From NCBI GenBank assembly GCA_944372445.1, contig CALVZE010000001.1:50199-114198 (forward strand): a stretch of DNA of 64,000 bases. Direction: 5' to 3'. Source of the DNA: an uncultured Clostridia bacterium. Lineage in GTDB: Bacteria > Bacillota > Clostridia > Christensenellales > UBA1242. Of the stretch, positions 6,001 to 30,606 are shown in pieces; the first letter of the stretch is position 1; the number at the start of each line of letters is the position of its first letter. Both the position numbers and the translations under genes were made by a program. Under the pieces are notes generated by a model. The model had not been told where the DNA came from. It did no database searches and worked only from the letters and a program-made list of their open reading frames with translations.

Positions 6001-9000
6001 ATAGCCTGTTCTTTCTGCATAAGGAAGAGGTTGTGCCTCGCCATAAGTTATATTTTGCTCTAATACAACATCGTTTTCTTTATAAAACCCTAGCGATATC
6101 TCTAGATTATTAAAGCGATAACCTTGACTAAATGTAATTGAAAATGTTCCTTCAAAAGTTTCGTTAAGTTCAAGGGTAAATGTGCCAGATGTATTATAAA
6201 CAGTTTCAACATCTTCACTTACAGCACCAAATGCAAAAGTAAGCACGGCACTTGACGCTCCCATTTGCCTTATAAGAGAACCACTTTGAACAAAGTATTT
6301 ACCAATATACGTCCCAGCCTCAAAGGTGCCAGCAAAGTCAACGAGTGTGATGTCGCCTGTTGAGGTTCCGTCCAATGTGAACACATTGGTGCCAGCATCA
6401 TAGTCAATTGTCACACCGCTTTGTGTGGTTGACCAATCTTCTTCACGAATGGCATAGTTAAGGCCTTTGACACCTGCGTTGCCTGTGCCATAGTTTTGAT
6501 TATATTGAACAGTATAGGTGTTCACTTGCCACTCAGCCGTCAAGGTGACATTTCCGAAAAGTCTATCGCTGTTGTTTGCAGAATCTGCGTCAGAAGAGAT
6601 AACAGTGCCAGGAAGTAATTGCGTTGTGGACGCGAACCACTTAGAGCCTCGCGTTAAGTCCTCTGTGGTGGAGACTGTAAACTTGGACAAAGTGTGTCCT
6701 GTTTTTTCAATTTCGGTTGTGGATGGAAGAGTGAAGCCCTCGTATTGATTTGTCACAACTTGATTTGCATAGTCAACTCGTCCATAAACATTGTAATACA
6801 TGGTTGCGGTGTTAGCTCCGCCGTTAGCGAAAGAACCGTCATCGCCAGCGTTTACCGTTGCCGTGTAGACAACATAGTCATAGTAAATTTTAATTTCAAG
6901 AGAGCCGTCACCAACAACAGTCAAAGCGTTGCCTTCTAAGTTGGTGGTGTAGCCATTTGTTTCGCGATATTTAAAGCCGTTTATATTGACCTTCCCGCCT
7001 GCAATTGCATTCTTAACAGCCTCAATGTCAACTGTTTGACCTGCGAGATAAGTTTCATTATCGCTATATCTACCAAGTTCAGTATAGCCTTTTTCTGCTG
7101 TTTGAATGTAGACTATAACTTCGTAGTTTGTCTTTAATGCTTGCCATACCGCCGTGAGAGTGACATCGCCATAGAGATTTGCCTCTGTTGTGAAGGTTTC
7201 TCCCTGAGCAAAGCTGATGCCGTCAGGGTAATTTTCTTCCCAGTTACCTTCATCATTGGAGATTGTGTAACCAACAAGAGCATAGCCGTCACGAATGATG
7301 TTTGTGCTATTTTTTAAGCTGATAGCATTTGGATAAGTATAGCTTTGTGTTGCGTCATTTTCAGTGTTAAATCTACCTTGATTTGCGTCATAGGTGATTG
7401 TGTAATCATTGGCATCCCACTCAGCGACAAGGGTGATATTTCCATACTTTTTAGACACGTTTTCGCCTTTCTGATAGTCAACAGTCGTGCCGTTATTAAC
7501 GCTCCAATTGTTTTCCGTGTCGCTTCCCTCAGCCTTATAATTCCAGCCGACAAGCGTGTAGCCCGTTCTTTCAATATCAGCGTCACCAAAGAGTGTAGCT
7601 CCACTTTCAATAGTGTAAGAGTCGGTGCTTGCGTCTGTGAAAGTTCCGCCATTTGCCTCGTAGGTTATTGTGTAGCCCACCGTGCTAAAGATTGCCTTCA
7701 AAGTTACATCACCAAAGAAGCCCGTTCCGAAACCAGCTGTTACACCGGTTCCAAAGATTGTTGATCCCCATCCCTCACTTTGATTGACACCGCTTACGAA
7801 ATCCCATTCGGTGATTGTGTAACCATAGCGTTTAAAGGTTTCATTGCCAAGGAGTTTTAAGTTGTCTTCAATCGTGTATGCCTCTTCGATTGTCACAGAG
7901 CTTTGTGCAAGGCTTTCGCCGTTATACTCTACTTCTTTATACACGCTTTCATCGAAGCTGTATGTGATGTCATATTCAATCGCCACGAATTGAGCGGTCA
8001 GGGTGGCGTCGCAGTTTAAAGTGAAAGGTTCGCCCTTTGCGATTATTTCGCCGTTATAATCTCCTGCATCAGAGATAACCCAACCTGTGAAATTGTAGCC
8101 ATTTGGAGGAGTAGCGGAGAAAGTTTCGTTTTGGTCGTGAATTTTCTCTTCAACACTTGTTGCGTCATTAACCTTTAAAGTAATGTCGTAGATTTCTCTA
8201 ACAACAGCGTTTTCACTGGTGTTTTTATTTGGTGTCCAAGTGAAGGAAATGCTGTTTCTAGCTCCGCCAGAGGTTGGGACACTGCCAAGAGCAAGATAGT
8301 AGTTTTCCGTGCCTGTTCTTGTCAAAGTGATAGTGATAGCATCATCATCAAAGTCTTTTGTTATAACAATACTGTTGCCATAGGTGAGAGATTGTGAGTA
8401 GCCAGCGTCATCACTTCTTGTTACTGTCAAGCTTGTTGAGTTCATTGCGCCAAGAGCAGTAATGCCTGCAAAATCGGCAAAATTGATTGTTAAATTATAT
8501 TCAATCGGGTCATATTGCGCAGTCAAAGTATATGACGAAGCGTCATATCTATTCCATACTGCGGTTAGACTTCCGAGATTGTTCGTGATTAAGGTTCCAT
8601 CAAGAGCCCAGCCTTTGAATGTGTAACCTGTAAGATTAGATACCACTGGTGTTACAACATTAGAAACTGCGTAATCGCTTTGAGATGAGCCAGTTCTCGA
8701 TGAGTAGATAACATTTGAATCATACACCACATAAACTGTTGTAGGTGTAGATAATGTTGGACTTCCACCATTATTAATAAGTGGCGAATAGTTTGTGTCA
8801 AGAGTTACGGCATATACATTAGCCTTCCAAACAGCAAAGAGTTCCACTTGCCCATTAACTGAGCTTGATAGGTTTTCAACTTCTTGTCCGTCAGTGTATG
8901 TAGGAGTGCTAGCACCACTTTCTCTTGCCCAGCCAAGGAAGGTGTAGCCGTTTCGTTTGAATTCATTTAATGAAAGTGCTTGCGTAACATCATAGGTAAA

Positions 9001-12000
9001 TTCTTGTGGATCCATTTCACCACTCGATGCACCATTTCCATTAAAAGTAACGGTGTAAGTATTATTTGTCCATTGTGCAACAAGAGTTACATTGCCGTAT
9101 TTACCTAGCACGCTTGTATTTGCTTGATATACCGTATCCATATCCCAAGCATAGCCACCTGAGGATAATGGACCAACATCAGCTGTTGGCTTCCAGCCTG
9201 CAAAGGTGTAGCCAACGCGTGAAACATTGTTTGATAAAACTTCTGTTGATTCAAAGGTATATCCAAAGGATGCAGGACTTGGGAGCGTTACACCCTCAAC
9301 ACCTCCTGCTGAATAGGTCACTGTGTAAGGGTCAGCCTTCCAAATAGCATACATTACAGCGTGATTTGCTATTTGAGAGAATAGACTGTCTGCCTCTTCG
9401 CTGGACTGAACCACCATGCCAGCGTCATAAATGCTGTCAGGGTCTGTTTCATTTTCTTCAAACGCCCAACCAAGGAAGGAATAGCCTTCTCTTTTTAGGT
9501 TTTCTGCGTCATGCAAAGTGAAATTTTCTCCAACTTTCATTGGCAATTCATTTTGGTCAGCCGAGCCTGTTGTAAATCTACCGCCGTTAGCATTAAAGGC
9601 GATTTGATAAGCATGCACGCTCCATTTAGCGTTGATTGTGACAGGGTTGTCATCGTCAGTCTTGTCATAGATTGTCCAAGAGCTGAAAGTAAGCTTACTG
9701 CCGTCATAATTTACAACAATATTGTTTTCGTTATCGTAATAATAGCCGTCAAAATCATAGAGATTTCTTTCTGGAACCTCTAAGCTTGCCGTGGTTGTGC
9801 CACTTGACGCTGAGTAGATTTTGTTGCTGTCAAATTGAATATAAACGGTCTTTTGTTTTTGTCCGTCAGAGAATTCGCCCTCGCCAGCGTCTTGAATAAC
9901 TTGTATACGCTTAGCCGTCCAGCTTGCGTTAAGAGTTGGGAAGTTGCCACTTGTGTAGTTTATGTCCCAATTCTTCGTCAAAACGCCGTTAGAGCCAGTG
10001 TAAGAGTTGCTTGCCGTGTTATAATACCAGCCGTTAAAGGTGTAGCCTGCCTTTGTTGGCACCAAACTTTCAATTTTGTTTCCGCCAACCCATGCGTCAT
10101 AGACATCTTTTGTGCCGTAATCAATGTAAACTGTTTGATAGTCGCGCTCTGGTGTTGTTGACGCCGAGCCTTTGTTGTGATTTAAGGTGACAGGAATACG
10201 CTTAGCTTTCCATTGAGCGTAAAGAGTGACATTCCCACCGGTAAGCTCGCCGATATTTCCTGCGTTATAGGTCTTTCCACTGCCGTCTTCCTCTGTGTTC
10301 CAGCCAGTGAACATATAGCCCTCACGCTTTGCGATAGGAATATATGTGTTTTCATCGTGCGTGATAACCTGTGTAGTCATCGGCGCGTTGTAGTAAAGAT
10401 AGAACCTAATTTGGTAGTTGTTGAAGGTTGGCATGGTGTTACCTTCACCAGGGAGATAATTCATAATCAAAGCTCTCGAATTTTCTAGATTTTCCTGCGT
10501 GATATTAATAGTATTTTCATAAGCAGAATTCCCTATGTAACTCGTGCCAAAAGTTCTAGAATTGCCATAATCAGTCTCCTTATTTAAGAAAAAGGCACCG
10601 TAAACATTTGTTAAAGTATTGGTTTCTTCTACTGTTCCAGGATTAGCAATATCGCCCGATATTACATTATAGCCAAAAGTATATGACCCCGCTGAAAGAT
10701 TTAAATTTGTGAAGTCTTCATCATAAAAACCTACAAAAACACTGTTATAATCATGATCATTCGTGTCATATGTCCCATTCAAAGTAAATACATTTGTTTC
10801 TGCATCGTAGTCTATTGTCACACCATGGCTTGTTGTTGACCAATCTTCAAGGCGAGTTGCATAGTTTAATCCGCTCATTGTTCCGCCGTTTGGATTGTAG
10901 GTCACTGTGGTTGCGTTTGGCGTCCAATAAGCATAGAGAATAACACCGTCTTCTGCCTTATCCCAATTTCTTGCGCTTGTGCCGTCGTTGTTATAGTATT
11001 TTGTGCCGTTTGTCTGCTTGTCATAGAAGCCGGCAAAGGTGTAGCCTGTGCGTGTTGGCAAGCCTTCACTAATGATTGGCATAGCCTCGCCATAGGTAGC
11101 CGTCACAGTTGTTGTTGCACCAAGCTCGCCACCATTTGCGTTTAAGGTCACCACATATTCTTTTGCTTCCCAATTTGCCGTGAGGGTCACCGCGCCGTAT
11201 TTTGTGAAAGCTGAAATTGTTTGACCCGGTGTGTAAGTTGAAGTTCCCCAATTTCCGCTTGCGCTGTTTGAAGCGGTAAAGCCTGTGAGTGTGTAACCCG
11301 TTCTTGTCACAACATCGCCAGCCAAAAGACTAAACTCAGCATTTACATTGTAATTATAAGGAAGATTATTTGTCGAGTTGTTGTAACTTCCACCTGCAAA
11401 GTTATATGTGATAACATTGCCGTCAGAGTCATGCTCCCAAATCGCGTAGAGAGTGGTGGCTTCGACTTTTGTCCAAGGGCTTTTTAAGTTGCCATTTGCG
11501 TCAATAATGCAATCGTCAGCACTGACCGCACTTTTGTCTAACGCCCAGCCGAGGAAGTTGTAGCCGTTTAAACTTGCCTTAACTGCGCCAGAGCCTGAAC
11601 CTGTGGTGTTATCGGTCTTGTTGGCATAAAGCGTTGCTGTGCCATAGACAGCATAGATTTTTGTAGTATTGGCAGGGTCAAGAACAACCGTCCAATTGCA
11701 CGATTCCGGTAAATTTGTATCTAAATTGATTTCACAAAGAAGTGGTTTTGCTTGCGCCAAGAGAGTTACCGTTCCCCATTGTTCGGTCAAGTTTTTGCCG
11801 TTGTCAAATATATCGTTAGCCGTCCATGAGCCAACAGTCGATTTAACCTTCCAGCCTGAAATTTCATAGCCCGTAAGATTTATGTTTTCGCCTAAAATGA
11901 GAGTGGTCGTTACATCGTATGCGTATGGTTCGCCAAGTTCCTGCTCGGTTGAGCCATTGTTGTAAACATAGATAATGTTATATGACTCTTTCGTCCAGTG

Positions 12001-15000
12001 AGCATAAAGTGTGCCACCGCTGTCTTTCGTCCAAGTTCTTGAAGTTGCCGTGCCGTCAGCGTTAAAATATTGAAGTCCTTCTGTCTTGCTGTCAAAGAAG
12101 CCGGCAAACTTGTAGCCTGTGTGTGTTGGCAAGCTAGTGCTTGGGATGTTTTCAAATGGTTTGTCAAAGGTTGCTGTGACCTGTGTTTTGTTGCCAAGCG
12201 TTCCGCCATTAGCGTCCAATGTGACGGTGTATGTTTTAGCCTCCCATTGAGCGTAAAGGGTGTCGGACGCGTTGACTGAATATGGAGCTTGGTCAGCGTA
12301 ATCTGTTTCTGAACCACCCGCCTCAGTATTCCAGCCGTCAAAGTTATAGCCTGTCTTTGCAAAGCCATTAGCTCTAAGGTTAACACTTGCGCCATGAAGT
12401 TTATAGGTGCTTCCCATAGTGCCAGAGCCTGTATTTTGGTCATAAGATATAGTATATACCTCATATAGATATACATTTATAGTTAAAGTATTATCAGATA
12501 GTTCATCCACATCAGTAAACGCCTTGTCAAAGCTTATTTGATTACCACTTGCAGACAAATCGCTTGGATTATCAGAGAGAGACGTGTTGGAAATATAGTA
12601 GTTTGTTGGAGCGGTGAAGTTTAAGCTTAAAGTCTGTCCAAAAGCCACATTGGAAAGAGTGACAGAGCTTGTGCTGTTTGTTAAATCGCCACTGCCAAGA
12701 CTTGCTCCAACACTGCCTGTAACGGTGTAAGCGACAGAAACCGCGCTTGTGCTTGCACGATTGATATTCATATTTATTTTCACGCTATATGTTTTAGCCG
12801 TCCAGCGTGCGTATAGTGTGGTGTTTCCAACCTTGTCCCAAACTTTTGTGTTTGCACCGGTTTCGTCAAAATAGTGATTTCCACCTGTGGCGTCTTGGGT
12901 GTCATAGAAGCCGGCAAACTCATAGCCAGGGCGTTCAGGAATTTGCTCCGCTGTCAAAGCCGTCATGCTTGCACCATAAGTAACATTGTTTAACACCACT
13001 GTGGTGCCTGAGGCGAAGCTTCCGTTGTTAGCATTTAGCGTTACATCATATTTAAGTGGCGCCCAAATAGCATAAACGGTTATCTGAGAGTTATTTCCAG
13101 ACGCCGTCCATGTTCCTTTCACTGTTCCGTCAGCATTGATTACATAGTTTGTGCCGTCTGATGTTGTTGCCCAGCCTTGAAGAGTGTAACCAGCAAGTGT
13201 CGCTTTTGGCGTTCCACTTAAAGCGCTTGTGCCGTAATCAATTGTCAAAGTGTTTGAGGTGCCTGTTCCTGTTATACTTGGCGTTCCAATGAGCGCATGT
13301 CCCAAATTGTCCACCGTATTAGGAGAAAAGGTTATTTCAACATTGATTGGCGTCCATTTTGCATAAAGTACATCGTGGCTTGTTGTATACGTCAATCTAT
13401 TTTCAGCAAACACACCGCTGTCAAGTATAATTTGCATGCCACCGCTGTTGGTATCAGTATAGTAACCACCGAATGTATAGCCCGTTCTTGTTGGAACAGC
13501 AACACTTGCTATTGCTGATGTCGCTGCCTCATTCGAATACCAGCCCGTTTCATATTTCAAATATACAGTATTAATTGTGTTTGAACCTTGTTGATGATTA
13601 AGAGTAATAGTGTAAACTTCCGGAGTCCATTGAGCAAAAAGTGTAACCGAACCTTCGTTCACAGTTGTCATATTGCTCACGCTTTGCCCGTCACTATACG
13701 ATTGTCCTGAGCCGTTTCTTTCAGTGTTCCAACCTGTAAATTTATAACCTTTCAATTGATATTTATTTAGATTTAAGGTTTGAGGAGTGCCATATTTAAA
13801 TTCTTGATTTTCCATTGTTCCGGTCGCTCCGGTAGTCATATTATCGTCGTTATTGTCAAACACAACAGTAAAATTGTTGGCTTGCCACCTAGCTGTCAAT
13901 GTTACATTACCATACATATTGCTTATCTCTGCGCCCGAAGCATATGTAGAATTATGAGTCCAGTTTCCGTCCGCTGTTGTCACTTGCCAAAAAGCATCAG
14001 GGTCAGGATTATAACCTGTCTTTGACACTTCTGAGGCTAGGAGTAAATTGAATGTTTTATCATAATTATATGAATAAGTATTAGAAGAAGAGGATGTTCC
14101 TCCATTGAAGTTATATGTTAATGTATAAGGAATGACTTCCCACTCAGCATATAAAGACATAGAACTTGTCACTGAAATCTCTGTTGCAAATTCTCCACTA
14201 GGATAAACTTTCCAACCTTTTTGCCTATAACCTGGTCTTGTAAGAATATATTTGTTTGACAAATCTATTTTGCCGGTGTCAGGCATTTGCATTACAACCT
14301 TGCCTGTTTTGGCTTCTGGTTGTTGATGGTTGGCATATAAAGTTATGGTATGTCCGTCGAAGTTTTCAAGCACATAGTCTCTTGGATATGGATAAAGAGC
14401 GGTGCCTTGAAGAGTGCCATCAGCAGCATCCACTTCAATGGATGAAAACATCCAGCCTTCATTATTCTCTCCTAGCGTTTCTCCGGAGAAATTCCAATCA
14501 CCAGTCCAAAGAGTTGTCTCTTCTGTGCTTTCTAGATTGATAGGATAAGCGCTTTGTGCATAAAAACCAACGCGATATGCAAGACCAACATCAGCCCCCT
14601 CTTTTGGATCACCAAGCTGAATATTGCCCTCTATTATCTCCTCGTTGCCCTCTTTGTTATTCGGTCCATAACCCTTTATTCCGTTTGCAGTATCATAGTA
14701 GAATGATGCGTAGGAAGGCGTCGTCGCCGTCGGACAGTTAACCGCAGAACCATTGCTTGCAAAAAAGATAGAGTTGTTCGCAATCAAACTTGTAGGCGTT
14801 CCCGCATACATATTGATACCGCTTGTTGATGAACCGGTATAAACAAAAATTGAGTGATCGAGAAAAAGCGATACGCCTGCCAAATTATCAAAACCTGATG
14901 CGTCACTAAACTCAATTAACGTGTTTGTGATATGTAGTTCATCACCATTCGTGATACCTAAGGCACTCAAACTTGTGCTACCCATTTGAGAGGCGCCATC

Positions 15001-15201
15001 TTTGTAGTAATCGTTAGTGATGTAAATCACATTGCCGTCATCTGTTACTGCCGACATCGACACTTCGTCTTCGTCACTAACAGTTGCAGTGATTGTTGCT
15101 GGCTGAGCAACCAAAACATTCGCGCCAATGCCAAACATAGAAGCAAACACGCAAAGCCCCGCAACCAGCATAAGATTTAATTTCTTTTTAAACTTATCCA
15201 T
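1..15201 (-). CDS. Giant secreted/cell-surface repeat protein of Listeria-Bacteroides repeat (Flg_new / InlB B-repeat) type. The N-terminus is complete and the C-terminus lies beyond the window (>=5067 codons).
   Basis: Absent from the ORF track because no stop falls inside the window. Reverse-strand ATG at 15201-15199 follows AAGGAGA. Hand translation gives MDKFKKKLNLMLVAGLCVFASMFGIGANVLVAQP (signal peptide), then recurring GYxFxGW...LYAxW modules. The same codon phase at 1-69 decodes REGYTFLGWRVLADAGLNLDGS. No listed minus-strand ORF is in this phase, so it must be stop-free throughout. Confidence 0.85.
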   Translation of the reverse strand, partial: MDKFKKKLNLMLVAGLCVFASMFGIGANVLVAQPATITATVSDEDEVSMSAVTDDGNVIYITNDYYKDGASQMGSTSLSALGITNGDELHITNTLIEFSDASGFDNLAGVSLFLDHSIFVYTGSSTSGINMYAGTPTSLIANNSIFFASNGSAVNCPTATTPSYASFYYDTANGIKGYGPNNKEGNEEIIEGNIQLGDPKEGADVGLAYRVGFYAQSAYPINLESTEETTLWTGDWNFSGETLGENNEGWMFSSIEVDAADGTLQGTALYPYPRDYVLENFDGHTITLYANHQQPEAKTGKVVMQMPDTGKIDLSNKYILTRPGYRQKGWKVYPSGEFATEISVTSSMSLYAEWEVIPYTLTYNFNGGTSSSSNTYSYNYDKTFNLLLASEVSKTGYNPDPDAFWQVTTADGNWTHNSTYASGAEISNMYGNVTLTARWQANNFTVVFDNNDDNMTTGATGTMENQEFKYGTPQTLNLNKYQLKGYKFTGWNTERNGSGQSYSDGQSVSNMTTVNEGSVTLFAQWTPEVYTITLNHQQGSNTINTVYLKYETGWYSNEAATSAIASVAVPTRTGYTFGGYYTDTNSGGMQIILDSGVFAENRLTYTTSHDVLYAKWTPINVEITFSPNTVDNLGHALIGTPSITGTGTSNTLTIDYGTSALSGTPKATLAGYTLQGWATTSDGTNYVINADGTVKGTWTASGNNSQITVYAIWAPLKYDVTLNANNGSFASGTTVVLNNVTYGASMTALTAEQIPERPGYEFAGFYDTQDATGGNHYFDETGANTKVWDKVGNTTLYARWTAKTYSVKINMNINRASTSAVSVAYTVTGSVGASLGSGDLTNSTSSVTLSNVAFGQTLSLNFTAPTNYYISNTSLSDNPSDLSASGNQISFDKAFTDVDELSDNTLTINVYLYEVYTISYDQNTGSGTMGSTYKLHGASVNLRANGFAKTGYNFDGWNTEAGGSETDYADQAPYSVNASDTLYAQWEAKTYTVTLDANGGTLGNKTQVTATFDKPFENIPSTSLPTHTGYKFAGFFDSKTEGLQYFNADGTATSRTWTKDSGGTLYAHWTKESYNIIYVYNNGSTEQELGEPYAYDVTTTLILGENINLTGYEISGWKVKSTVGSWTANDIFDNGKNLTEQWGTVTLLAQAKPLLCEINLDTNLPESCNWTVVLDPANTTKIYAVYGTATLYANKTDNTTGSGSGAVKASLNGYNFLGWALDKSAVSADDCIIDANGNLKSPWTKVEATTLYAIWEHDSDGNVITYNFAGGSYNNSTNNLPYNYNVNAEFSLLAGDVVTRTGYTLTGFTASNSASGNWGTSTYTPGQTISAFTKYGAVTLTANWEAKEYVVTLNANGGELGATTTVTATYGEAMPIISEGLPTRTGYTFAGFYDKQTNGTKYYNNDGTSARNWDKAEDGVILYAYWTPNATTVTYNPNGGTMSGLNYATRLEDWSTTSHGVTIDYDAETNVFTLNGTYDTNDHDYNSVFVGFYDEDFTNLNLSAGSYTFGYNVISGDIANPGTVEETNTLTNVYGAFFLNKETDYGNSRTFGTSYIGNSAYENTINITQENLENSRALIMNYLPGEGNTMPTFNNYQIRFYLYYNAPMTTQVITHDENTYIPIAKREGYMFTGWNTEEDGSGKTYNAGNIGELTGGNVTLYAQWKAKRIPVTLNHNKGSASTTPERDYQTVYIDYGTKDVYDAWVGGNKIESLVPTKAGYTFNGWYYNTASNSYTGSNGVLTKNWDINYTSGNFPTLNASWTAKRIQVIQDAGEGEFSDGQKQKTVYIQFDSNKIYSASSGTTTASLEVPERNLYDFDGYYYDNENNIVVNYDGSKLTFSSWTIYDKTDDDNPVTINAKWSVHAYQIAFNANGGRFTTGSADQNELPMKVGENFTLHDAENLKREGYSFLGWAFEENETDPDSIYDAGMVVQSSEEADSLFSQIANHAVMYAIWKADPYTVTYSAGGVEGVTLPSPASFGYTFESTEVLSNNVSRVGYTFAGWKPTADVGPLSSGGYAWDMDTVYQANTSVLGKYGNVTLVAQWTNNTYTVTFNGNGASSGEMDPQEFTYDVTQALSLNEFKRNGYTFLGWARESGASTPTYTDGQEVENLSSSVNGQVELFAVWKANVYAVTLDTNYSPLINNGGSPTLSTPTTVYVVYDSNVIYSSRTGSSQSDYAVSNVVTPVVSNLTGYTFKGWALDGTLITNNLGSLTAVWNRYDASSYTLTAQYDPIEYNLTINFADFAGITALGAMNSTSLTVTRSDDAGYSQSLTYGNSIVITKDFDDDAITITLTRTGTENYYLALGSVPTSGGARNSISFTWTPNKNTSENAVVREIYDITLKVNDATSVEEKIHDQNETFSATPPNGYNFTGWVISDAGDYNGEIIAKGEPFTLNCDATLTAQFVAIEYDITYSFDESVYKEVEYNGESLAQSSVTIEEAYTIEDNLKLLGNETFKRYGYTITEWDFVSGVNQSEGWGSTIFGTGVTAGFGTGFFGDVTLKAIFSTVGYTITYEANGGTFTDASTDSYTIESGATLFGDADIERTGYTLVGWNYKAEGSDTENNWSVNNGTTVDYQKGENVSKKYGNITLVAEWDANDYTITYDANQGRFNTENDATQSYTYPNAISLKNSTNIIRDGYALVGYTISNDEGNWEENYPDGISFAQGETFTTEANLYGDVTLTAVWQALKTNYEVIVYIQTAEKGYTELGRYSDNETYLAGQTVDIEAVKNAIAGGKVNINGFKYRETNGYTTNLEGNALTVVGDGSLEIKIYYDYVVYTATVNAGDDGSFANGGANTATMYYNVYGRVDYANQVVTNQYEGFTLPSTTEIEKTGHTLSKFTVSTTEDLTRGSKWFASTTQLLPGTVISSDADSANNSDRLFGNVTLTAEWQVNTYTVQYNQNYGTGNAGVKGLNYAIREEDWSTTQSGVTIDYDAGTNVFTLDGTSTGDITLVDFAGTFEAGTYIGKYFVQSGSLIRQMGASSAVLTFAFGAVSEDVETVYNTSGTFTLELNETFEGTFSITFSQGYRFNNLEISLGFYKENDVVLEQNITYGEAQPLPYAERTGYHFVGWNTQADGQGTYYSYENIDTITTNDILYAQWEKNDYTIRFDASNNVMYHYILGGISGSLENFESSIVGNEEVVKVTFDSSNINTNITFASGANLIAGEEYVWTIDIKSTQAHNFEIGPLDGVIDYNYTTQGEWVTVTHRYTKKAENPSDFRIMGDWTVGEVFEFKNVSVQKVSDIEADHAIGSRTVRYNESYGTLPTPTKTGYTFNGWYLDEGLETPITSTSTVATAVNHTLYSKWTANTYYVRFNPNGAPYTSLMPNQQFTYDQEPTALSLNTYERPGYIFRGWATNETLNAETYEKRVKYKDGAEVKNLTSEPNGIFNLYAVWEPKTVTVTFNLNDVTDGTGSTEATFTIDALNTNAEMFVKFSEAFSELYITDENSIIGMPSARRAGYEFAGWFTNKTGGENVTESTVAENIVDSDSLAIVLYARWTANPYTVTYDGNGGTVNGDGSTTTVQGAGATFDVDYTYRPNDGTNETNFVKTGYTFAGWSLTPNGAIAYTAEQLGTEGYTTPFIHTSNITLYAVWTEHTYTLTFNSNDNRYPGSVSSVISGQSASVELDYTEEFTLRDIFNKPGYEFVGWVTEALKDTATADSFNTDVAGIADGMIKNDEIVSTLTAVDDGTYNLYAIWRSEPVSYTVNYMYQSVAAARAGTTNLETDFTRHSYTTTKEHAGTKIEVSTLSNTFISSNPALKATMHTSTTSNSDGSYVVAGDGNLVINIYFLRGTYDVTINIGAGIDTVTVLGNANSNITPTSNVYKVYYDETITLSATTKPGYTNPVFKDGEDIVSSMQINTNKTFTVSATPIVVNYNVEIYQQNVDDNNYTKLAEPSTSSGTTDTFVEFVKSTYGVTLNGTKFEYTGFSYNEDKTKEENGGNLANIKIEGDESTTVKLYFDRRSFNVTIVGDTGVESFTGNGSHIYGSTFDITVTEATGYEFVRWTVEGTKLGNFNENVMNQTGLIMGAGDVTLNIITQLETYTLTINANGGTYPSSTTITQDYGTTYKLQTPTRRGYTLADWTLSGDGDGSISGNTTDGFTFTFGVGDNTLTAVWSENSYNITFENVYNSFNVIVADKNGGNAKTVTIPANGTEGSHSYTINVKFTDIVVTTDNGVSTTPTGETYAELKGTNPTRTGYVFGSNEQVNAKWQNLIYLLKGVSEGAYRYSKYFDVSQTKTGWYSDSQQNTNTRAYAFTQLADETTVTISLNWLPMVSEITLSAEKEEGTSTNITATHEKVYANYDGSSLYGSIYEDGRIHEQVSGSAVYPTAERNGYEFLGWFTSEGVQVISASGRLLSNVSGYTNSNGGWASTNDITLYAHWTANRYEIELNVNTGTLDGDSIIDSSVWAEFDSQNLYVDQTSTTTVNPTASKVGYTFNGWTTTQNNLDTLFISAEGELLAPYTELAGDEVFAYFTVNDYEITLDLNAGGDSSATLVTGDVTVTDNKVYITYGTKNIYNSMDTSSRVIVAPKATRTGYDFIGWATSADATALSECVINASGQLINNSTFSEADTLYAVWRIGTFVITTDLTDAKIIDFSITGDATEQETDNTYRVNFGTEVRIAFNNMPGYSFTGFVTTPSGLVITPNEGGYEFTMPAYSFTLKLNSDNNLILVNLDANDDAGATKADALTYDKIYIGYNSKEIYAGRDENIWENIGGTITPTAHRDGYTFLGWSTNRNATTADECLINANGALNSDFTNATNDGAITLHAIWEKTSVSYSVEYYLQNVLGDEYTQDTSRTTPGTGAVDTNVTLSTYQIAIKGFAFGRYETNNTDTSSLNIRGDGQLVVKLYYTRNSYTLTIDKDNEEENIKVSGKYQSTYTLPTVTKTGYTFADWTKESGEGSVSGNTFTFGATDATVKANWTPKIIKVTLDKGEGDSVSISTIYAKYDSSTLYSDEAGNAPLTTMPTASKVGYDFDGFYLDETLVISKTGLVSTWKYADETTLTARFTAHTYTITYQDSYGNPTLSSDTYTILDEIELATSEREGYTFLGWRVLADAGLNLDGS

Positions 15202-15254
15202 TTCATTCTCCTTGTAACCGCGACCGCATACGCGACCTTCTATTACTTGAAAAT

Positions 15255-15284
15255 ATTATAATATATATGCGCAATTGTTGTCAA
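15255..15284 (-). promoter_or_regulatory. Candidate sigma-A promoter of the giant gene
   Basis: On the reverse strand, TTGACA (15284-15279), an 18-nt spacer, then TATAAT (15260-15255), about 50 nt upstream of the ATG. Confidence 0.4.
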
Positions 15285-17790: not shown

Positions 17791-18094
17791 AAATCGACTA
17801 TTTAAGTATAACATTATTATAAATTTTTGTCAATGTTTTTACATGACTTTTTTGTCATAATTGACAACATAACAAACCAAACTCTCTTTCTTATTGCATA
17901 AAACACCAAAGTGACAAGACTATAGTTTGTAAAATATAGTTATTTTTACATAACTTTAATCTTATACATAAAACAAACACACCTTGCTTATATTAGGACT
18001 ATAATTATACAAACATAACTTAATAAAACTTGAAATATAAAAAATAAAAGACAGGTCAAGTTAGCCCATCTTTTATTTATCTACAAAGTTTCTA

Positions 18095-18637
18095 TTAAAA
18101 TTCTTCCACTAATACTTCAAAGAAAGCTTGTGGGTGATTGCATACAGGACAAACCTTTGGAGCCTCATTGCCAACATATACATGTCCGCAATTTCTACAT
18201 ACCCAAATCTTCTTATCAGTCTTTTTGAAAACGGTTTTATTTTTAACTAGGTCTGCAAGTTTTCTATATCTCTCTTCATGTCTTTTTTCTATTTGAGCCA
18301 CGCCTTCAAATTTAGCTGCAATGGCAACAAAGCCCTCTTGACGAGCTTCCTCAGCCATTCTTTTATACATCTCAGTCCATTCACCATTCTCACCAGCAGC
18401 TGCATCTAATAGATTACTTAATGTATCAGGAACATCTCCTCCATGTAATTCCTTAAACCATAACTTAGCATGTTCCTTTTCATTGTCTGCTGTTTCTGTA
18501 AATATAGCAGCAATTTGCTCATAGCCTTCTTTTTTTGCTTTTGAAGCATAGAAAGTGTATTTATTTCTAGCTTGACTTTCGCCAGCAAATGCCTCCATTA
18601 AATTCTTTTCTGTTTTTGTTCCTTTTAACTCTTTCAT
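18095..18637 (-). CDS. rbr: Rubrerythrin
   Basis: N-terminal diiron four-helix-bundle motifs ([21 protein letters not shown]) plus a C-terminal rubredoxin-like CRNCG...CPVC. The ATG at 18637 follows GGAGG. Confidence 0.9.
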
Positions 18638-18868
18638 GTTTACCTCCATAATTATAATACCACAAAGCAAGTATCAAAGTCAAATATTTAACGGTCTCTA
18701 TATAAAAAATCTAAATTCAAAATTTGGACCAGACTACTTTTGCCAATTTAATAAAGATAATCACATTGTGTTTATATTATAATTTACATTGCTAAACATC
18801 TTTGGTATAAAATGGCTTTTTTTGAAGAGCATATAGACTTATTATTACAAACACTTCTAACGCTTTTC

Positions 18869-18898
18869 ATCAAAATGTTTCACGTGAAACATTTTGAT
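18869..18898. other. parS site 1 (core TGTTTCACGTGAAACA at 18876-18891 within a 30-bp perfect palindrome)
   Basis: Exact match to the Firmicute parS consensus TGTTNCACGTGAAACA. Non-coding, 0.7 kb from parB. Confidence 0.85.
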
Positions 18899-19030
18899 AT
18901 GACTTAAAGCCAGCATACCATATAAAGAAATTATAACATTATCATAAAAAGCATTTTAAAGTCTTTCTTTAATACGATTTGATTTATAATATATGTAACC
19001 AAATCCTTTAATCAATTACAAATGTAAAAA

Positions 19031-19046
19031 TGTTTCACGTGAAACA
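19031..19046. other. parS site 2
   Basis: TGTTTCACGTGAAACA, a perfect 16-bp palindrome. Confidence 0.85.
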
Positions 19047-19189
19047 ATTTTTATGTTGCCAAAACAAACCATGAACATTAAATGTATTAAATTTGCGTAT
19101 AATACATATACATTAATATCAACCATCTTTTGCCTATATTGACCGTTAATATAAATTATAAACAAACTAAGTTATTACCATTTGACCAC

Positions 19190-19213
19190 AAATTGTTTCA
19201 CGTGAAACAATTT
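19190..19213. other. parS site 3 (core 19194-19209, 24-bp perfect palindrome)
   Basis: AAATTGTTTCACGTGAAACAATTT. Confidence 0.85.
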
Positions 19214-19359
19214 CTTTAACTCTAATATATAAAAGGTTCGATTATTATATTACCCTTATGTTAGCAAATGAACAAAACAATAAAACATATCGGCCTCTCG
19301 CGGTAATGTAATGCAATTAATTGTAGTCTTGCCAACTTGTGCGTATTCACGATAATGTC

Positions 19360-19383
19360 TAATTGTTTCACGTGAAACAATTA
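19360..19383. other. parS site 4 (core 19364-19379, 24-bp perfect palindrome)
   Basis: TAATTGTTTCACGTGAAACAATTA. Confidence 0.85.
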
Positions 19384-19522
19384 AAAACATTTAATAAACA
19401 CATAATACACGCTTTTACATTATTTACTACATTATATTGCTGAAAATTTTTAATTATATTGGTTTAAATCACTCTCTTTGCACAAACTCAATATACGCGT
19501 GGTAATTCCTGCTGTATTATAC

Positions 19523-19563
19523 GAAAAAAATAAAAGAGATTGTTTTTAAAGCACAATCTCTTT
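19523..19563 (-). terminator. Rho-independent terminator of parB
   Basis: 11-bp stem AAAGAGATTGT/ACAATCTCTTT followed on the minus strand by T7. Confidence 0.7.
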
Positions 19564-19571
19564 CTTTTAAA

Positions 19572-20528
19572 CTATTGATGTCTTTTATTATAGTTTTGTA
19601 AATCTTGCAATGTCATTTCTTTCTTATTAAGTAATTCAAGAAGTTCTGCAATTCTATCTAAATCATCTCTTGTATAATAGTCAATATATATTCTTCCCTT
19701 GTTATCATTTCCTATCGCACTCACTTTTGTTGCAAATGTCTTTTGCATTTGAATTATTAGCTCTTTCAGTTCTAACGACTGCTCCGGCATAACTATATGA
19801 CGCTTTTGCGGACTTTCCAAGTTTTTAACCGCCTTTTCTAGCTCTCTAACGCTTAGATTTTTGTTTATAGTCAACTGTGCAAGTTTTATCTGCTGATTTT
19901 TATCTTCTATTACCACTAAGCATCTCGCATGACCAGCTGACAGCTTCCCATCTTCCACCATTTTGAGAACATCAGGATACAAAGACAACAATCTAAGAGT
20001 GTTTGCAATGCTAGAACGACTTTTACCAATTCTATCAGCAACAACCTCTTGCGTTAATCCATATTCATCCATCAATTCCTTTATCGCCTTAGCTGCTTCT
20101 ATCGGATTTAAATCTTCACGCTGTAAGTTTTCTATAATACTTATTTCTTTAACTTGCTTATCGGTATAATTTCTTACAACTGCAGGAACTGTCTTTAATC
20201 CACATATATTCGCAGCACGCCATCTTCGTTCGCCCGCAATTATCATGTATGAGCCATCGCCCATATCATTAACCACTATCGGCTGAACGATGCCATGCAT
20301 CTTAATTGATGAGGCTAGTTCGTTTAAAGCTTCGGCGTCAAAGTTTTTTCTAGGCTGATTTGGATTTGGTTTTATCTTTCCTATTTCTATCTCTGTCACT
20401 CCGCCACTTTTTGGCGCCACATCTTTTTTCTCTGGCGTTTTGGTAGTTATATTATTATAACTTTCGTCCTTATACACGCCAAACAACGCATCTAACCCTC
20501 GACCTAATCCCTTTTTGTTATTTATCAT
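19572..20528 (-). CDS. parB: Chromosome partitioning protein ParB/Spo0J
   Basis: GLGRGLDALF N-terminus, the IAGERRWRAA ParB box and an HTH region. Confidence 0.95.
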   Translation of the reverse strand: MINNKKGLGRGLDALFGVYKDESYNNITTKTPEKKDVAPKSGGVTEIEIGKIKPNPNQPRKNFDAEALNELASSIKMHGIVQPIVVNDMGDGSYMIIAGERRWRAANICGLKTVPAVVRNYTDKQVKEISIIENLQREDLNPIEAAKAIKELMDEYGLTQEVVADRIGKSRSSIANTLRLLSLYPDVLKMVEDGKLSAGHARCLVVIEDKNQQIKLAQLTINKNLSVRELEKAVKNLESPQKRHIVMPEQSLELKELIIQMQKTFATKVSAIGNDNKGRIYIDYYTRDDLDRIAELLELLNKKEMTLQDLQNYNKRHQ

Positions 20529-25625: not shown

Positions 25626-26714
25626 TTATTTAATTTTTATAATTTTTCCGTCAGAAATTAAAAATTCTTTTCCTATTAGATTTTTATTTTCAGTGGTAGA
25701 GATGAATGTTTGAGTTCGGCTGGCAAATTTAAGCAATCTTTCTTGCCTATCACTATCTAATTCACTAAACACATCGTCGAGCATAAGAATAGGATATTCT
25801 CCCACTTCGTTATACATATTTTCTAATTCAGCAAGCTTCAAAGAAAGTGCCACCGTTCGCTGTTGTCCTTGCGAACCGAAGTTTTTAACTTCCACACCAT
25901 TTAAAAATATATCTATGTCATCTCTATGCACTCCGAGCGAAGTGTATCCAAGTTTAAAATCTTTTTCCAAATTCTTTTTTAATAGTTTGTTAAAATTTTC
26001 TTCAAATTTTTCATCAAGATTGACCCCACAGCCAGAAATATAGCGAAGTTCTACCTCCTCCTTTCCTCCACTTAAATAGCCCTGTGCCTTTTGCGTGTAT
26101 GGAGCAATTGACCTAACAAACTTATCTCTTTCAAAAGCTATCTTTTTTGCAGACTGAATGAGTGCTCTATCCCAAATATCCACCGTTTCTTTAACAACAT
26201 TTATATTGTCGCTATTTTTTAAAAGCTTATTTCTGTTTCCTAATATCTTTTCATATCGTGAAAGTTGATAAAAATAACGCCTGTTCATTTGTGATATGTC
26301 TATATCCATAAATTTTCGTCTTTCTTCCGGACTTTCTTTGACGAGTTTTAACTCGTTTGGAGAAAAAAAGACAATATTTATCTCACCGATAAGTTCTCCT
26401 ATCTTTTTAATAGGTAAATTGTTAACCAAAACCGTCTTTTTTGACTTTTTAGAAAATTTTACCTCCACTTTAAGCGTTCTATACTTTTTTTCTGCTTCTA
26501 AACAAATATAAGCCTCTTCACTGTTCCATTTTATAATATCTCTATCTTTTATAGATTTAAAACTTTTACCTATACAACAATAATATATACTTTCAAGCAA
26601 ATTAGTCTTCCCTTGTGCATTCTTTCCAACAAATATATTAAGCGAATTGCCAAAATTCACTTCCAAATCGTCATAATTTCTAAAATTCTTTAACTTTAAA
26701 GTGTTAATTTTCAT
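25626..26714 (-). CDS. recF: DNA replication and repair protein RecF
   Basis: N-terminal LKLKNFRNY...GKNAQGKTNLLESI Walker A and a C-terminal LLDDVFSELD signature. Confidence 0.93.
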   Translation of the reverse strand: MKINTLKLKNFRNYDDLEVNFGNSLNIFVGKNAQGKTNLLESIYYCCIGKSFKSIKDRDIIKWNSEEAYICLEAEKKYRTLKVEVKFSKKSKKTVLVNNLPIKKIGELIGEINIVFFSPNELKLVKESPEERRKFMDIDISQMNRRYFYQLSRYEKILGNRNKLLKNSDNINVVKETVDIWDRALIQSAKKIAFERDKFVRSIAPYTQKAQGYLSGGKEEVELRYISGCGVNLDEKFEENFNKLLKKNLEKDFKLGYTSLGVHRDDIDIFLNGVEVKNFGSQGQQRTVALSLKLAELENMYNEVGEYPILMLDDVFSELDSDRQERLLKFASRTQTFISTTENKNLIGKEFLISDGKIIKIK

Positions 26715-26913
26715 ACCTTAACTATTATACCATAAAATTTACATATATAAAAGTGTTTTCAATAACTTTCCTATTATATTATATATAATATATATTATAT
26801 AATATATATACATATATATAAGGCAGTATCATTTCATAAATTTTAGAAAGCTCAATTAAGTAAGCCTTGAAAATTAAAAATATATATTTTTGTTATAAAA
26901 TTTTCAAAAAAAG

Positions 26914-26942
26914 TTGAAAAAAAGTTATAAAATTGATATAAT
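26914..26942 (+). promoter_or_regulatory. dnaA promoter candidate
   Basis: TTGAAA, a 17-nt spacer, then an extended -10 (TGaTATAAT), about 30 nt upstream of the dnaA ATG. Confidence 0.5.
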
Positions 26943-26972
26943 TTACTTGAATAACAAAAAGAGAGGTGTAAA

Positions 26973-28316
26973 ATGCAAGATATAGAAACAATATGGAAAC
27001 AAATTTTAGAAAAGCTTGAACTTAGAATTTCATCTGTTTCTTTTATGCTTTGGATAAAAACTATCAAACCTCTTGAAATTGATGAGAATGGAAATTTTAT
27101 TTTAGTTGCTCAATCAGTCACAGCAAAAAATCAAATACTAAGAAATTTTCTAGACAAAATTGATGATTGTGCAAATGAAGTAACGGGAAAAAGTTTTAAA
27201 ATTACCATACTTGACCAAAACGAAGAAGTGGAATATTTAAAAAATAACAAAGTTGATGAGAAAAACACTTCAAAAAATGAAGAAAAATCGCCTTTTAAAG
27301 AAAAATTTACTTTCGACAACTTTGTTGTCGGTAAAAGTAACCAATTCGTCTACGCAGCAGCGCGCACAGTTGCAGAACATCCTGGAAAGAGATATAACCC
27401 TCTTTTTATATATGGCGGTGTTGGTCTAGGCAAGACACACCTACTTCATGCAATTGGAAATTATATACACGAATTTTCTCCAAATCTAAAAATCATGTAT
27501 GTGACATGTGAACAGTTTACAAACGACTATATCGCTTCATTGTATTCTCCGACCAAAAACAAATCCATAATGGAATTTAGAGGAAAGTATCGAAACCTTG
27601 ATGTATTGATGGTGGACGACATTCAATTCATCTCACGCGGAAAAGAAACGCAAGAAGAATTTTTCCACACCTTTAACGAACTCATTATGAATAATAAACA
27701 AATTATCATATGTTCTGACCGTCCTCCTAAGGATATAGAAACACTTGAAGACAGACTTCGTTCGCGTTTTTCCTCTGGACTTATTCATGACATACAAGCA
27801 CCTGACATAGAAACAAGGATTGCTATTCTTCATAAAAAGAGTCAGCTTGAAAAATACTACGCCGAAGATGAAGTTATCAACTACATCGCCGAGCGCGTAG
27901 ATACAAACATAAGAGAATTAGAAGGAAAACTTAGCGAGGTTTATTTTTTAGCAACTTTAAACGGTAAAAAAGTTGCCACCATGGAAGAAGCAAAGGAAGT
28001 CTTTACAAAAGAACCAAAAGAGGAAATCAAAAACGACCTCAACGTAGACAAGATTATAAGCACGGTTTGCGACTATTTCAATATCGGCTACCAAGACATC
28101 ATCGGCAAAAAGAAAAATAAAGAAGTTGTCGAACCTAGAATGATTGCCATCTACCTTATCAGCGAGCTTTTAAATCTTCCCCTTGTCAATATTGGTAAAA
28201 TCTTTGGCGGGCGTGACCATACCACAATTATGCATTCGCGCGACAAGATAACTGAGGAGTTAAAGACAAACAAGAAGATACAAAACTTAGTGAGCGACAT
28301 TAAAAACATGTTATAA
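26973..28316 (+). CDS. dnaA: Chromosomal replication initiator DnaA
   Basis: AAA+ motif GGVGLGKTHLLHAIGN and a C-terminal DNA-binding domain (...GGRDHTTIMHSRDKI). Confidence 0.97.
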   Translation: MQDIETIWKQILEKLELRISSVSFMLWIKTIKPLEIDENGNFILVAQSVTAKNQILRNFLDKIDDCANEVTGKSFKITILDQNEEVEYLKNNKVDEKNTSKNEEKSPFKEKFTFDNFVVGKSNQFVYAAARTVAEHPGKRYNPLFIYGGVGLGKTHLLHAIGNYIHEFSPNLKIMYVTCEQFTNDYIASLYSPTKNKSIMEFRGKYRNLDVLMVDDIQFISRGKETQEEFFHTFNELIMNNKQIIICSDRPPKDIETLEDRLRSRFSSGLIHDIQAPDIETRIAILHKKSQLEKYYAEDEVINYIAERVDTNIRELEGKLSEVYFLATLNGKKVATMEEAKEVFTKEPKEEIKNDLNVDKIISTVCDYFNIGYQDIIGKKKNKEVVEPRMIAIYLISELLNLPLVNIGKIFGGRDHTTIMHSRDKITEELKTNKKIQNLVSDIKNML

Positions 28317-28511
28317 ATGAATTTTTATTCAAAATCTATAAGACTATTTCTTATAGGTTTTATTTTTACTGCACTATTTTTTATAAAAATTTTGATTTTT
28401 TTAGATTTTTGGCTATTTTTTTTACATATTTTATTCTTTTTTTTATTTGTTGCTATGTATTTTTATGCACTAATATACAGAAATCTTGTCAAATCTTATG
28501 ACATATTTTAA
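28317..28511 (+). CDS. Possible 64-aa very hydrophobic small membrane protein (doubtful)
   Basis: The ATG abuts the dnaA stop (TAAATG) and the ORF ends 2 nt before the hairpin terminator at 28514. The DNA is extremely T-rich and there is no RBS, so the ORF may be chance. Confidence 0.25.
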   Translation: MNFYSKSIRLFLIGFIFTALFFIKILIFLDFWLFFLHILFFFLFVAMYFYALIYRNLVKSYDIF

Positions 28512-28513
28512 AA

Positions 28514-28535
28514 CACAGGCACTGCCTGTTTTTGG
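28514..28535 (+). terminator. Hairpin plus T-run downstream of dnaA
   Basis: CACAGGCAcTGCCTGTTTTTGG. The same hairpin recurs at 57698. Confidence 0.55.
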
Positions 28536-28602
28536 CCATATATTTTACTGCATTTTCTTAGATCCTTCGACAGGCTCGCTAACGCTCACGGCTCAGGATG
28601 AC
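28514..28602 (+). repeat. About 90-bp repeated module, copy A (hairpin plus AGATCCTTCGAC...GCTCAGGATGAC core)
   Basis: Aligns by eye to 57698-57791 at roughly 80% identity. Confidence 0.75.
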
Positions 28603-28693
28603 ATCAAACTATATTGCAATATTTTTTGACATAAATTCTTTATCTTGTCTTTTTACTTTGTTATAATAGAACTCTTCTTTACAGCTTTTTACC

Positions 28694-28873
28694 TTATCCA
28701 CATAAGTTTTCCCCAAAAAGTCCGCCTTTTTAGTGGACTTGTGGACAACACTTACCACATATCCACAAAAATATCCACATTAATTAAACACTAAATATTG
28801 AGGGTTTTCTTGTTTTTCTTCAATGTTTTAATCTAAATGTGGAAAAACTAGAAAAGTTATCCACATATCCACA
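28694..28873. promoter_or_regulatory. oriC DnaA-box cluster (7 boxes)
   Basis: Perfect TTATCCACA at 28694 and 28857. One-mismatch boxes at 28740 (reverse strand, TTGTCCACA), 28759, 28771, 28838 (reverse strand, TTTTCCACA) and 28865. Confidence 0.85.
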
Positions 28874-28926
28874 GCCATAATTAATAATATTATTATGCTA
28901 TAAATTAATTAATTTAATTATTTTAG
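28874..28926. other. AT-rich DNA-unwinding element candidate of oriC
   Basis: 53 bp with only 6 G/C, immediately 3' of the last DnaA boxes. It begins with the trinucleotide-periodic tract ATAATTAATAATATTATTAT. Confidence 0.55.
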
Positions 28927-28955
28927 TTGCGCACACGCGGATTTTATGATATAAT
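28927..28955 (+). promoter_or_regulatory. dnaN promoter candidate
   Basis: TTGCGC, a 17-nt spacer, then TGaTATAAT. Confidence 0.45.
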
Positions 28956-28984
28956 ACTTTAAACTAAAAAATAAAGGAGATATC

Positions 28985-30085
28985 ATGTTAGTAAGTTGTC
29001 ATGGAGTGGAACTTTCAGATGCTTTTCTGAGCGTCAGCAAAGCAATTTCTAATAAAGTTACCAACCCGATTTTAGAAGGTATTAAAATTACAGCCGAGGA
29101 TGACACTTTGACGCTAAGTGCCACAGATAGCGACCTTTCCATTGAAAGAAAGATTAAAGCAAACATTAAAGCGGAGGGTGAAGCAGTCGTTCCAGGTAAA
29201 TTCATCACCGAATTTATTAAGAAGTTGACAAATGAGATGATTGAACTTGAACTTAACGACAAAAATCAGATGCTTATTCGTTATGATGACAGCCATAGTA
29301 TCATACAATGCTATAATGTTTTGGAATATCCATCTTTCAAAAAGTTGGAAAGTAGCGATTATTTTGCTATCAGCAAAAAAGATTTGAAAACGATAATAAA
29401 TAAAACGCGCTTTTCTGTTGCCATAGACGATTCAAGGCCGATTCTTAAAGGAGTGCTTTTTGATATTGATAAAAATGAGTTAAATGCGGTGGCTCTCGAT
29501 GGATATCGTCTTGCCAAGGTTAAAAAGCATATTCGTTCAGATTTGAAGATGAATATTGTTATTCCTGCTAGAAGCTTAGATGAAATTTCAAGACTATTAG
29601 ACGATAGCGAAGATTTAATAAATATTTATGTGGATAAAAGCACTTTGATGGTGGATTTCGGCGAAACAAAACTGACCACTCGTCTTATTGAGGGCGACTT
29701 TGTCAATTACAAGCAAATAATTTCAGCCAACTATGAAACGATATGTATAATTAATAAATCTCAGTTTGAAGATGCCTTAGAGAGAGCTTCTCTTCTTTCG
29801 AAAGTCGGGCAGGGAAATTGCGTTAAATTTGAAATAAAAGAAAAAAATCTTTGCATAACTTCAAATTCTGAGATAGGTAACGTGAAAGAAAATGTGCCAA
29901 CCAACACCAGCGGAAAAGATTTAGTTATAGCCTTTAATGCTAGGTATTTTATTGAGTCACTAAGAGCAAATCAAGACGAATTTGTTAAAATATGCTTTAA
30001 TTCTCCAGCCAACCCTTGCGTTATTGTGCCTGTTGAAGGCGATGAGTTTTTGTATCTAATCCTTCCTGTTCGAATGATAGGGTAA
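28985..30085 (+). CDS. dnaN: DNA polymerase III beta sliding clamp DnaN
   Basis: 366 aa with a three-domain clamp pattern, directly after dnaA/oriC. RBS is AAGGAG. Confidence 0.95.
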   Translation: MLVSCHGVELSDAFLSVSKAISNKVTNPILEGIKITAEDDTLTLSATDSDLSIERKIKANIKAEGEAVVPGKFITEFIKKLTNEMIELELNDKNQMLIRYDDSHSIIQCYNVLEYPSFKKLESSDYFAISKKDLKTIINKTRFSVAIDDSRPILKGVLFDIDKNELNAVALDGYRLAKVKKHIRSDLKMNIVIPARSLDEISRLLDDSEDLINIYVDKSTLMVDFGETKLTTRLIEGDFVNYKQIISANYETICIINKSQFEDALERASLLSKVGQGNCVKFEIKEKNLCITSNSEIGNVKENVPTNTSGKDLVIAFNARYFIESLRANQDEFVKICFNSPANPCVIVPVEGDEFLYLILPVRMIG

Positions 30086-30391
30086 CTTTTAGTCAAGCCA
30101 AAATATTTATAAAATAAATGCTACAAAATACAAAAAAATTAAATAATAATTTATAATAATTTATAATAATAATTATTTAATATATAATATTATGTTAATA
30201 TATAAATATTATTTAATAATTTTTTTGCTTGCAAGAGGAAATTATATGGTTATTTAAAAATAACTTTGACATTTTGCTTATTTTAGTTATATTTTTTTAG
30301 TAATTGAAGGAATTGTTTTTATTGATTTTTAAATAATAAAGGATTGCTCGAAATTTCGACATCCTTTTTTTATTTTTCCAGCGTTTTAGAG

Positions 30392-30420
30392 TTGACAAAT
30401 ATCATAAAATTTATTATAAT
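30392..30420 (+). promoter_or_regulatory. rpmH operon promoter
   Basis: TTGACA, a 17-nt spacer, then TATAAT (all consensus), 50 nt upstream of rpmH. Confidence 0.65.
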
Positions 30421-30469
30421 AACTTTCATAGCATTTCTTTGCTAGAAATTTACACATAAGGAGAGGAAC

Positions 30470-30604
30470 ATGAAAAGAACATATCAACCTAAGAAAAGAC
30501 AAAAAAATAAGGTTCATGGTTTCCGTGAAAGAATGAGAACCAAGGGCGGTAGAAATGTTTTGAAAAGACGCAGAAATCGCGGTAGAAAGAAAATTGCGGG
30601 CTAA
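30470..30604 (+). CDS. rpmH: 50S ribosomal protein L34
   Basis: Below the track length cutoff. Hand translation gives [44 protein letters not shown] after a GGAGAGG RBS. Confidence 0.95.
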
Positions 30605-30606
30605 AA

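Follow-up and report, generated by a model that had tools for sequence, protein, structure and literature searches.

The centromere of the F plasmid, sopC, consists of 12 true tandem repeats of 43 bp, whose period is fixed and whose sequence is specific to the plasmid, and on the chromosome of Bacillus subtilis several of the parS sites are found in coding DNA, spo0J included. Most species carry more than one parS site near oriC, with numbers that range from 1 to 20-23 (PMC7022226, PMC7333895), and the reasons for this clustering are posed as a question in reviews (PMC7022226, PMC7333895, PMC5815017). In Myxococcus xanthus 22 parS sites are present on a 3.12-kb fragment, which is shifted by ParB in EMSA (Iniesta 2014, PMC3899335). 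Caulobacter has at least five clustered parS sites and tolerates new sites only near the native cluster (PMC5815017). One site has been found to be sufficient in the clusters of Caulobacter crescentus and Pseudomonas aeruginosa, with extra sites tolerated only in the neighbourhood of the native ones (PMC5815017, PMC4368675). Single-molecule work on the B. subtilis ParB has shown that a larger number of parS sites leads to a higher rate of clamp loading and to more stable condensation (PMC8299390). The four palindromes described here, from an uncultured Clostridia bacterium, are in all likelihood an origin-proximal chromosomal centromere of this kind, a parS cluster providing the loading sites for ParB.

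Four exact copies of TGTTTCACGTGAAACA, separated by 155, 163 and 170 bp, are present in the window, that is, the whole 64-kb stretch of DNA that was analysed (Table 1). All four are exact matches to the parS consensus TGTTNCACGTGAAACA, a 16-bp palindrome. With up to two mismatches allowed, 0.06 matches to TGTTTCACGTGAAACA would be expected by chance, and four were reached in none of 100 dinucleotide-preserving shuffles. No further copy at up to two mismatches was seen when the whole 64-kb window was scanned, and at three mismatches the sole extra match, at 31800, is weak. The motif scan agrees with the initial annotation, made from the letters of the DNA, in the starts and spacings of the four copies and in each being a perfect parS consensus. 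The further observations of that annotation, that three of the copies sit within longer perfect palindromes of 30, 24 and 24 bp and that the array occupies non-coding DNA between the parB terminator and rubrerythrin, adjoining parAB, were also confirmed. The gene-free stretch between parB and rubrerythrin, which had been put at about 900 bp, comes to approximately 934 bp when counted from the rubrerythrin start at ATG 18637.

Table 1. Positions of the parS sites and neighbouring features in the window.
Feature	Position	Strand	Description
Promoter-like site of rubrerythrin	18654-18683	-	TTGACT, 18-nt spacer, TG-TATTAT
parS site 4, farthest from parB	18876-18891		Perfect 16-bp consensus in a 30-bp perfect palindrome (18869-18898)
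parS site 3	19031-19046		Perfect 16-bp consensus; imperfect flank extension with 14-nt arms, 93% complementary
parS site 2	19194-19209		Perfect 16-bp consensus in a 24-bp perfect palindrome (19190-19213)
parS site 1, nearest parB	19364-19379		Perfect 16-bp consensus in a 24-bp perfect palindrome (19360-19383)
Intrinsic terminator of parB	19528-19565	-	12-bp stem, 9-nt loop, then UUUUAUUUUUUU
parB, 318 aa	19572-20528	-	ParB_N (PF02195) and HTH_ParB (PF17762) domains
parA/soj, 271 aa	20532-21347	-	Deviant Walker ATPase (PF13614)
oriC DnaA-box cluster	28694-28873		Seven boxes at up to one mismatch, in the dnaA-dnaN spacer

The site nearest to parB lies 192 nt from the parB stop, an offset that is identical in the relative L001, while the DNA hairpin of site 4, at the other end of the array, has a calculated energy of -10.8 kcal/mol (z -4.2). 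In a repeat search only about 29 nt around each core were common to the units of the array, and TRF detected no tandem-repeat structure in the parB-rubrerythrin spacer; an origin of the four units by tandem duplication is on these grounds unsupported. The spacer also contains no ORF longer than 49 aa and has no Rfam match at E<=1. A hidden RNA or peptide gene was rejected, given the lack of an Rfam match, the presence of short low-complexity ORFs only and the absence of conservation of the spacer relative to L001.

The ParB encoded beside the array retains the N-terminal GLGRGL motif, the GERRWRA CTP box, ENLQRED and GKSR...AGHAR, and aligns with solved Spo0J/ParB structures at E values of 1e-56 to 1e-45, those for 1vz0, 7bnk, 6sdk and 6t1f being 1e-56 to 1e-49. 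Specificity for parS as opposed to NBS is set by positions 173, 179, 184 and 201 of the Caulobacter protein (Jalal et al., PMC7383237), parS binders having an invariant R173 and a preference for G201 and Noc having QKKR (PMC7383237). The segment GKSRSSIANTLRLLSLYPDVLKMVEDGKLSAGHAR is in an ungapped register of 35 residues with Caulobacter G170-R204, which places R, T, S and G at the specificity positions. These are the equivalents of R173, T179, S184 and G201, so the specificity residues are those of a parS binder, and the protein is a canonical ParB of the chromosomal kind. The palindromes were also considered as Noc-binding sites (NBS); this was discarded, the ParB residues being of the parS type, the sites being exact matches to the parS consensus and no second ParB-like gene (noc) lying between rsmG and parA. 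SMC and ScpAB genes were not seen within the 64-kb window.

On the side of parB the array is bounded by the terminator of this gene, which folds as RNA at -14 kcal/mol (z -4.05) and is followed by a U-tract. The far-side boundary is the promoter-like site of rubrerythrin, positioned just upstream of the RBS and the ATG at 18637, and its TTGACTTTT motif is kept in relatives. With this ATG as the start, and GGAGG at 18643-18647, rubrerythrin has 180 aa as in all relatives; the mechanical ORF call (TTG 18670, 191 aa) is too long at the start.

The order of genes on the minus strand is mnmE, mnmG, rsmG, parA, parB and then recF, with dnaA, dnaN, rnpA and yidC on the plus strand. The cumulative GC skew reaches its minimum near 28 kb, and the array is 9.3-9.8 kb from this minimum and the DnaA-box cluster, in keeping with the distance of about 9.5 kb from oriC that had been proposed at the outset. 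The array is flanked by a conserved set of chromosomal origin genes, and neither plasmid nor integrase genes were found beside it. The origin gene order in this region (25626-32517) departs from that usual in Bacillota; recF and dnaA are divergent, rnpA-yidC lies downstream of dnaN, and the DnaA boxes are clustered solely in the dnaA-dnaN spacer. At positions 1-15255 the minus strand of the window consists of one stop-free frame of at least 5085 codons, which runs past the window start and whose L001 orthologue is annotated as a protein of 12,703 aa. Domains of the Listeria-Bacteroides repeat family (PF09479) are found all along this frame, which has a GC content of 41-43% against 30-35% in the neighbouring DNA, and it probably encodes a giant surface protein.

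The initial annotation had suggested that the same intergenic region be compared in related genomes. Ten related lineages were available as metagenome assemblies, with ParB 95-79% identical and 2.5-4 kb on each side of parB covered. The order parA-parB-spacer-rubrerythrin is kept in all ten, and the sites recur throughout, each parB-rubrerythrin spacer containing from one to six parS sites, nearly all of them perfect. Within the 2.5-4 kb on each side of parB no parS site was found outside this spacer. Four sites per spacer are present in the window, L001, L167, L169 and L171, six in L004 and L005, five in L006, three in L007-L009 and two in L010-L012; L165 (3458-4024), with a ParB that is 94% identical, has one. 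The length of the spacer climbs with the copy number, from 211 to 1272 bp. In the relatives, neighbouring sites are spaced by 73-218 bp, and the array is separated from the next gene by 110-328 bp.

When the window is compared with L001, the third codon positions of parB are only 56% identical, and each of the inter-site spacers is at the level of identity seen on shuffling. All four cores are perfect in both. Since they have stayed perfect amid spacers that have diverged to this extent, the cores are under strong purifying selection within DNA that evolves fast; copy number, spacing and spacer content are free to vary. In L005 two of the sites (5275 and 5626) have one mismatch each, and this tolerance, together with the single site of L165, argues that the four copies are not individually required. 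Turnover of the array is rapid among close relatives (L165, L005 and L006). The ParB protein is identical in L004, L005 and L006, and the spacer of L006 (4964-6099, five sites) cannot be aligned with those of L004 and L005 except at the sites themselves and the rubrerythrin promoter. The spacings of 82-83 bp in L006, where the flanks are alike, hint at a recent local duplication.

That the near-even spacing, at about 160 bp, might be a functional period was considered and rejected, because the spacing is not conserved in the relatives. Only 3 of 455 triples of the relatives' spacings are as even as those of the window, which is therefore an outlier in its evenness and not the rule. By simple arithmetic, 155, 163 and 170 bp share no common helical phase.

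Species-representative genomes (GTDB, one per species) were surveyed for two perfect sites 141-171 bp apart, yielding at least 120 loci at each of which 8 kb was examined; because every locus was selected for a pair at this spacing, the survey reports on the breadth of such arrays and not on their frequency. Among the loci listed, the nearest matches to the window are L051, L112 and L013, which are Clostridia, Eubacteriales and Christensenella MAGs. The matches span at least ten phyla, and the taxa comprise Clostridia, Bacilli, Actinomycetes, Alpha-, Beta- and Gammaproteobacteria, Acidobacteriota, Spirochaetes, Planctomycetota, Bacteroidota, Chloroflexota, Patescibacteria and Deinococcota. Three or more perfect sites occur within the 8 kb at 84 of the 120 listed loci and four or more at 53, the maximum being 10. 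When sites are chained at gaps of up to 300 bp, 65 of the 120 have clusters of at least three sites and 39 of at least four. Among the survey matches listed, the median spacing of clustered sites is 133 bp and most of these sites (308 of 406) lie outside stop-free stretches of at least 120 codons. A ParB gene is present within 8 kb at 47 of the 120 listed loci and absent from the other 73, and in other taxa arrays of the identical 16-mer adjoin unrelated genes. True tandem parS arrays are also found on chromosomes, as in a member of the Hyphomicrobiales with nine sites at a 50-bp period (L109, 402-816); a Bacilli MAG has a tandem array with a 55-bp period (L035, 5384-5894). Five sites at 155-168 bp are seen in L031 (1146-1814, Bacilli MAG), with no ParB match within 8 kb. 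A pair of perfect parS sites of the chromosomal type, 141-171 bp apart, is also carried by each of 32 IMG/VR contigs classed as viral (L133-L164), which may be phage-plasmids or else pieces of chromosome wrongly assigned to viruses.

The array had been called unusual, a description that does not survive this comparison: compact chromosomal arrays of perfect parS sites are widespread in the survey and have already been described, and the window array is an ordinary, if tidy, case of the tight parS cluster found in many bacteria. The use of B. subtilis as a yardstick was correct in that the sites there are single and scattered, but that species shows one of several patterns and cannot be taken as the norm. 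Similarly, of the proposal of an unusually focused loading site for ParB and condensin, one focused ParB zone is very probable, although neither the survey nor the literature supports the word unusually.

The symmetry of the sites extends beyond the core. Flanks were analysed at window positions 18869-19383, in L001-L012 and in the survey loci L013-L132, the control being to re-pair left and right flanks that come from different sites of the same locus. In the clade the mean palindrome extension is 4.05 bp compared with 1.65 bp on re-pairing (P<0.0005). Among the survey matches listed, the extension is 2.39 observed against 1.52 re-paired at loci with a GC content below 40%, 1.55 against 1.01 at 40-58% and 1.78 against 0.95 at 58% and above; orthologous sites in related survey species are counted repeatedly here, which inflates the significance and not the effect size. 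The flanking sequences are specific to each site, for example ctcaaaa/ttttgag, cttaaaa/ttttaag and taaat/attta, and the extension is larger than the half-site preference of ParB predicts. It is possible, though we think it rather doubtful, that a process which makes palindromes, and not tandem duplication, gives rise to parS sites or maintains their symmetry. The symmetry could result from inverted duplication or template switching at a half-site, from ongoing quasi-palindrome correction, or from selection for the extrusion of hairpins or cruciforms. No account of parS cruciforms or extended palindromes was found in the literature searched. If it were true, such palindrome-making, along with the turnover in copy number from one to six, could bear on how bacterial centromere clusters expand.

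For the parS cluster, the match to the consensus, the location near the origin, the adjacent cognate ParB with its ParA partner and the selection on the cores are established; the cluster is genuine and very probably functional. Binding of ParB, loading of clamps and recruitment of SMC at the array would be expected from the known biochemistry of the family. By analogy with its characterised members, ParB dimers would use the helix-turn-helix to bind each 16-bp site and would then, as closed clamps with CTP bound, slide onto the flanking DNA, with new dimers taking their place at the sites. The four sites, all within 500 bp, would then behave as one high-flux zone of ParB loading, giving, at about 9.5 kb from oriC, one partition complex that would be segregated by ParA and on which SMC condensin would probably be loaded. 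Redundancy of the sites within such a zone would fit both the single-site relative L165 and the decaying sites of L005.

Other roles for the palindromes can be envisaged. They might be mainly regulatory operators, at which ParB or another dimeric factor silences or insulates the rubrerythrin promoter or autoregulates parAB, with segregation being secondary. This would be consistent with the last site being about 190 bp from the promoter-like site of rubrerythrin, with the synteny of parB, array and rubrerythrin across the clade, and with the transcriptional effects near parS that have been seen in some species (reviewed in PMC7022226). On the other hand, a distance to the next gene that varies from 110 to 328 bp and a copy number that varies from 1 to 6 are unlike a tuned operator, and the arrays of the 16-mer next to unrelated genes in other taxa do not favour a role tied to rubrerythrin or parAB; we regard this explanation as unlikely, although the array may act on rubrerythrin as an operator or insulator by way of a side effect. 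A function as RNA or DNA hairpins, whether as bidirectional terminators, insulators between parB and rubrerythrin or cruciforms, with the likeness to parS incidental, is much less likely again. The sites do fold as RNA, at -13 to -15 kcal/mol (z -3.4 to -4.8), they have an A-rich left and a T-rich right flank, and the symmetry of the flanks is above chance. However, a terminator scan of 18000-20000 found none and the stems of the sites are not followed by a U-tract on the transcribed strand, so that they were rejected as intrinsic terminators; parB, moreover, has a strong terminator of its own. Exact identity of a 16-bp core across phyla would also not be needed for a hairpin to function.

The explanation to which we attach the least probability, a very small one, is that the array represents either a generic repeat of the dispersed, REP/MITE-like kind or a centromere that belongs to an integrated plasmid rather than to the host chromosome itself. 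A likeness to plasmid centromere arrays had been noted in the initial annotation, and pairs of TGTTTCACGTGAAACA are carried by the 32 IMG/VR contigs. Against this, the rest of the 64 kb contains no further copy, the units have about 29 nt in common and form no tandem repeat, the flanking genes are those of a conserved chromosomal origin with no plasmid or integrase genes beside the array, and the array is found at this same locus in all relatives. A plasmid centromere of the iteron type was rejected because TRF finds no array, about 29 nt are common per unit and the spacing in the relatives lies anywhere between 73 and 218 bp; carriage on a plasmid or prophage replicon was rejected because the array is set within chromosomal origin genes of conserved synteny. 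The plasmid-like character first ascribed to the array was thus not upheld, there being no tandem iterons, a chromosomal origin context and a variable spacing in the relatives.

As a chromosomal parS cluster, the locus would mark the centromere of an uncultured lineage of gut Clostridia, and likely the point at which its SMC is loaded. With its relatives it provides a natural series of 1, 2, 3, 4, 5 and 6 sites in one conserved spacer, which could serve the question of why parS sites cluster and how their copy number evolves (PMC7333895, PMC5815017). No new mechanism is revealed, the array being as the ParABS literature and the genome survey predict.

Among the known systems, the iteron-type centromere sopC of the F plasmid resembles the array in having multiple, closely placed binding sites for a ParB-family protein beside the par operon. 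It differs in that the spacers of the window are unrelated to one another, the spacing varies across the relatives and the site is the chromosomal consensus. With the Spo0J sites of B. subtilis the array has in common the 16-bp consensus, the ParB family and a presumed role in SMC loading (PMC4536313, PMC7333895). In B. subtilis, however, around ten single sites are scattered over the origin region, whereas here there is one compact intergenic array, and the window lacks the noc paralogue between rsmG and parA. In C. crescentus and P. aeruginosa several parS sites near parAB and oriC give rise to one ParB zone, as those of the window very probably do, although those clusters extend over several kb with some of the sites intragenic, while the four sites of the window are identical and are contained in one intergenic stretch of 500 bp. 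The cluster of M. xanthus, a GC-rich deltaproteobacterium in which ParABS is essential, is larger, with 22-24 sites compared with four, and not all of its sites are perfect palindromes; the two are alike in that consensus parS sites crowd together over a short distance near the origin and beside parAB, with a mean spacing in M. xanthus of about 140 bp.
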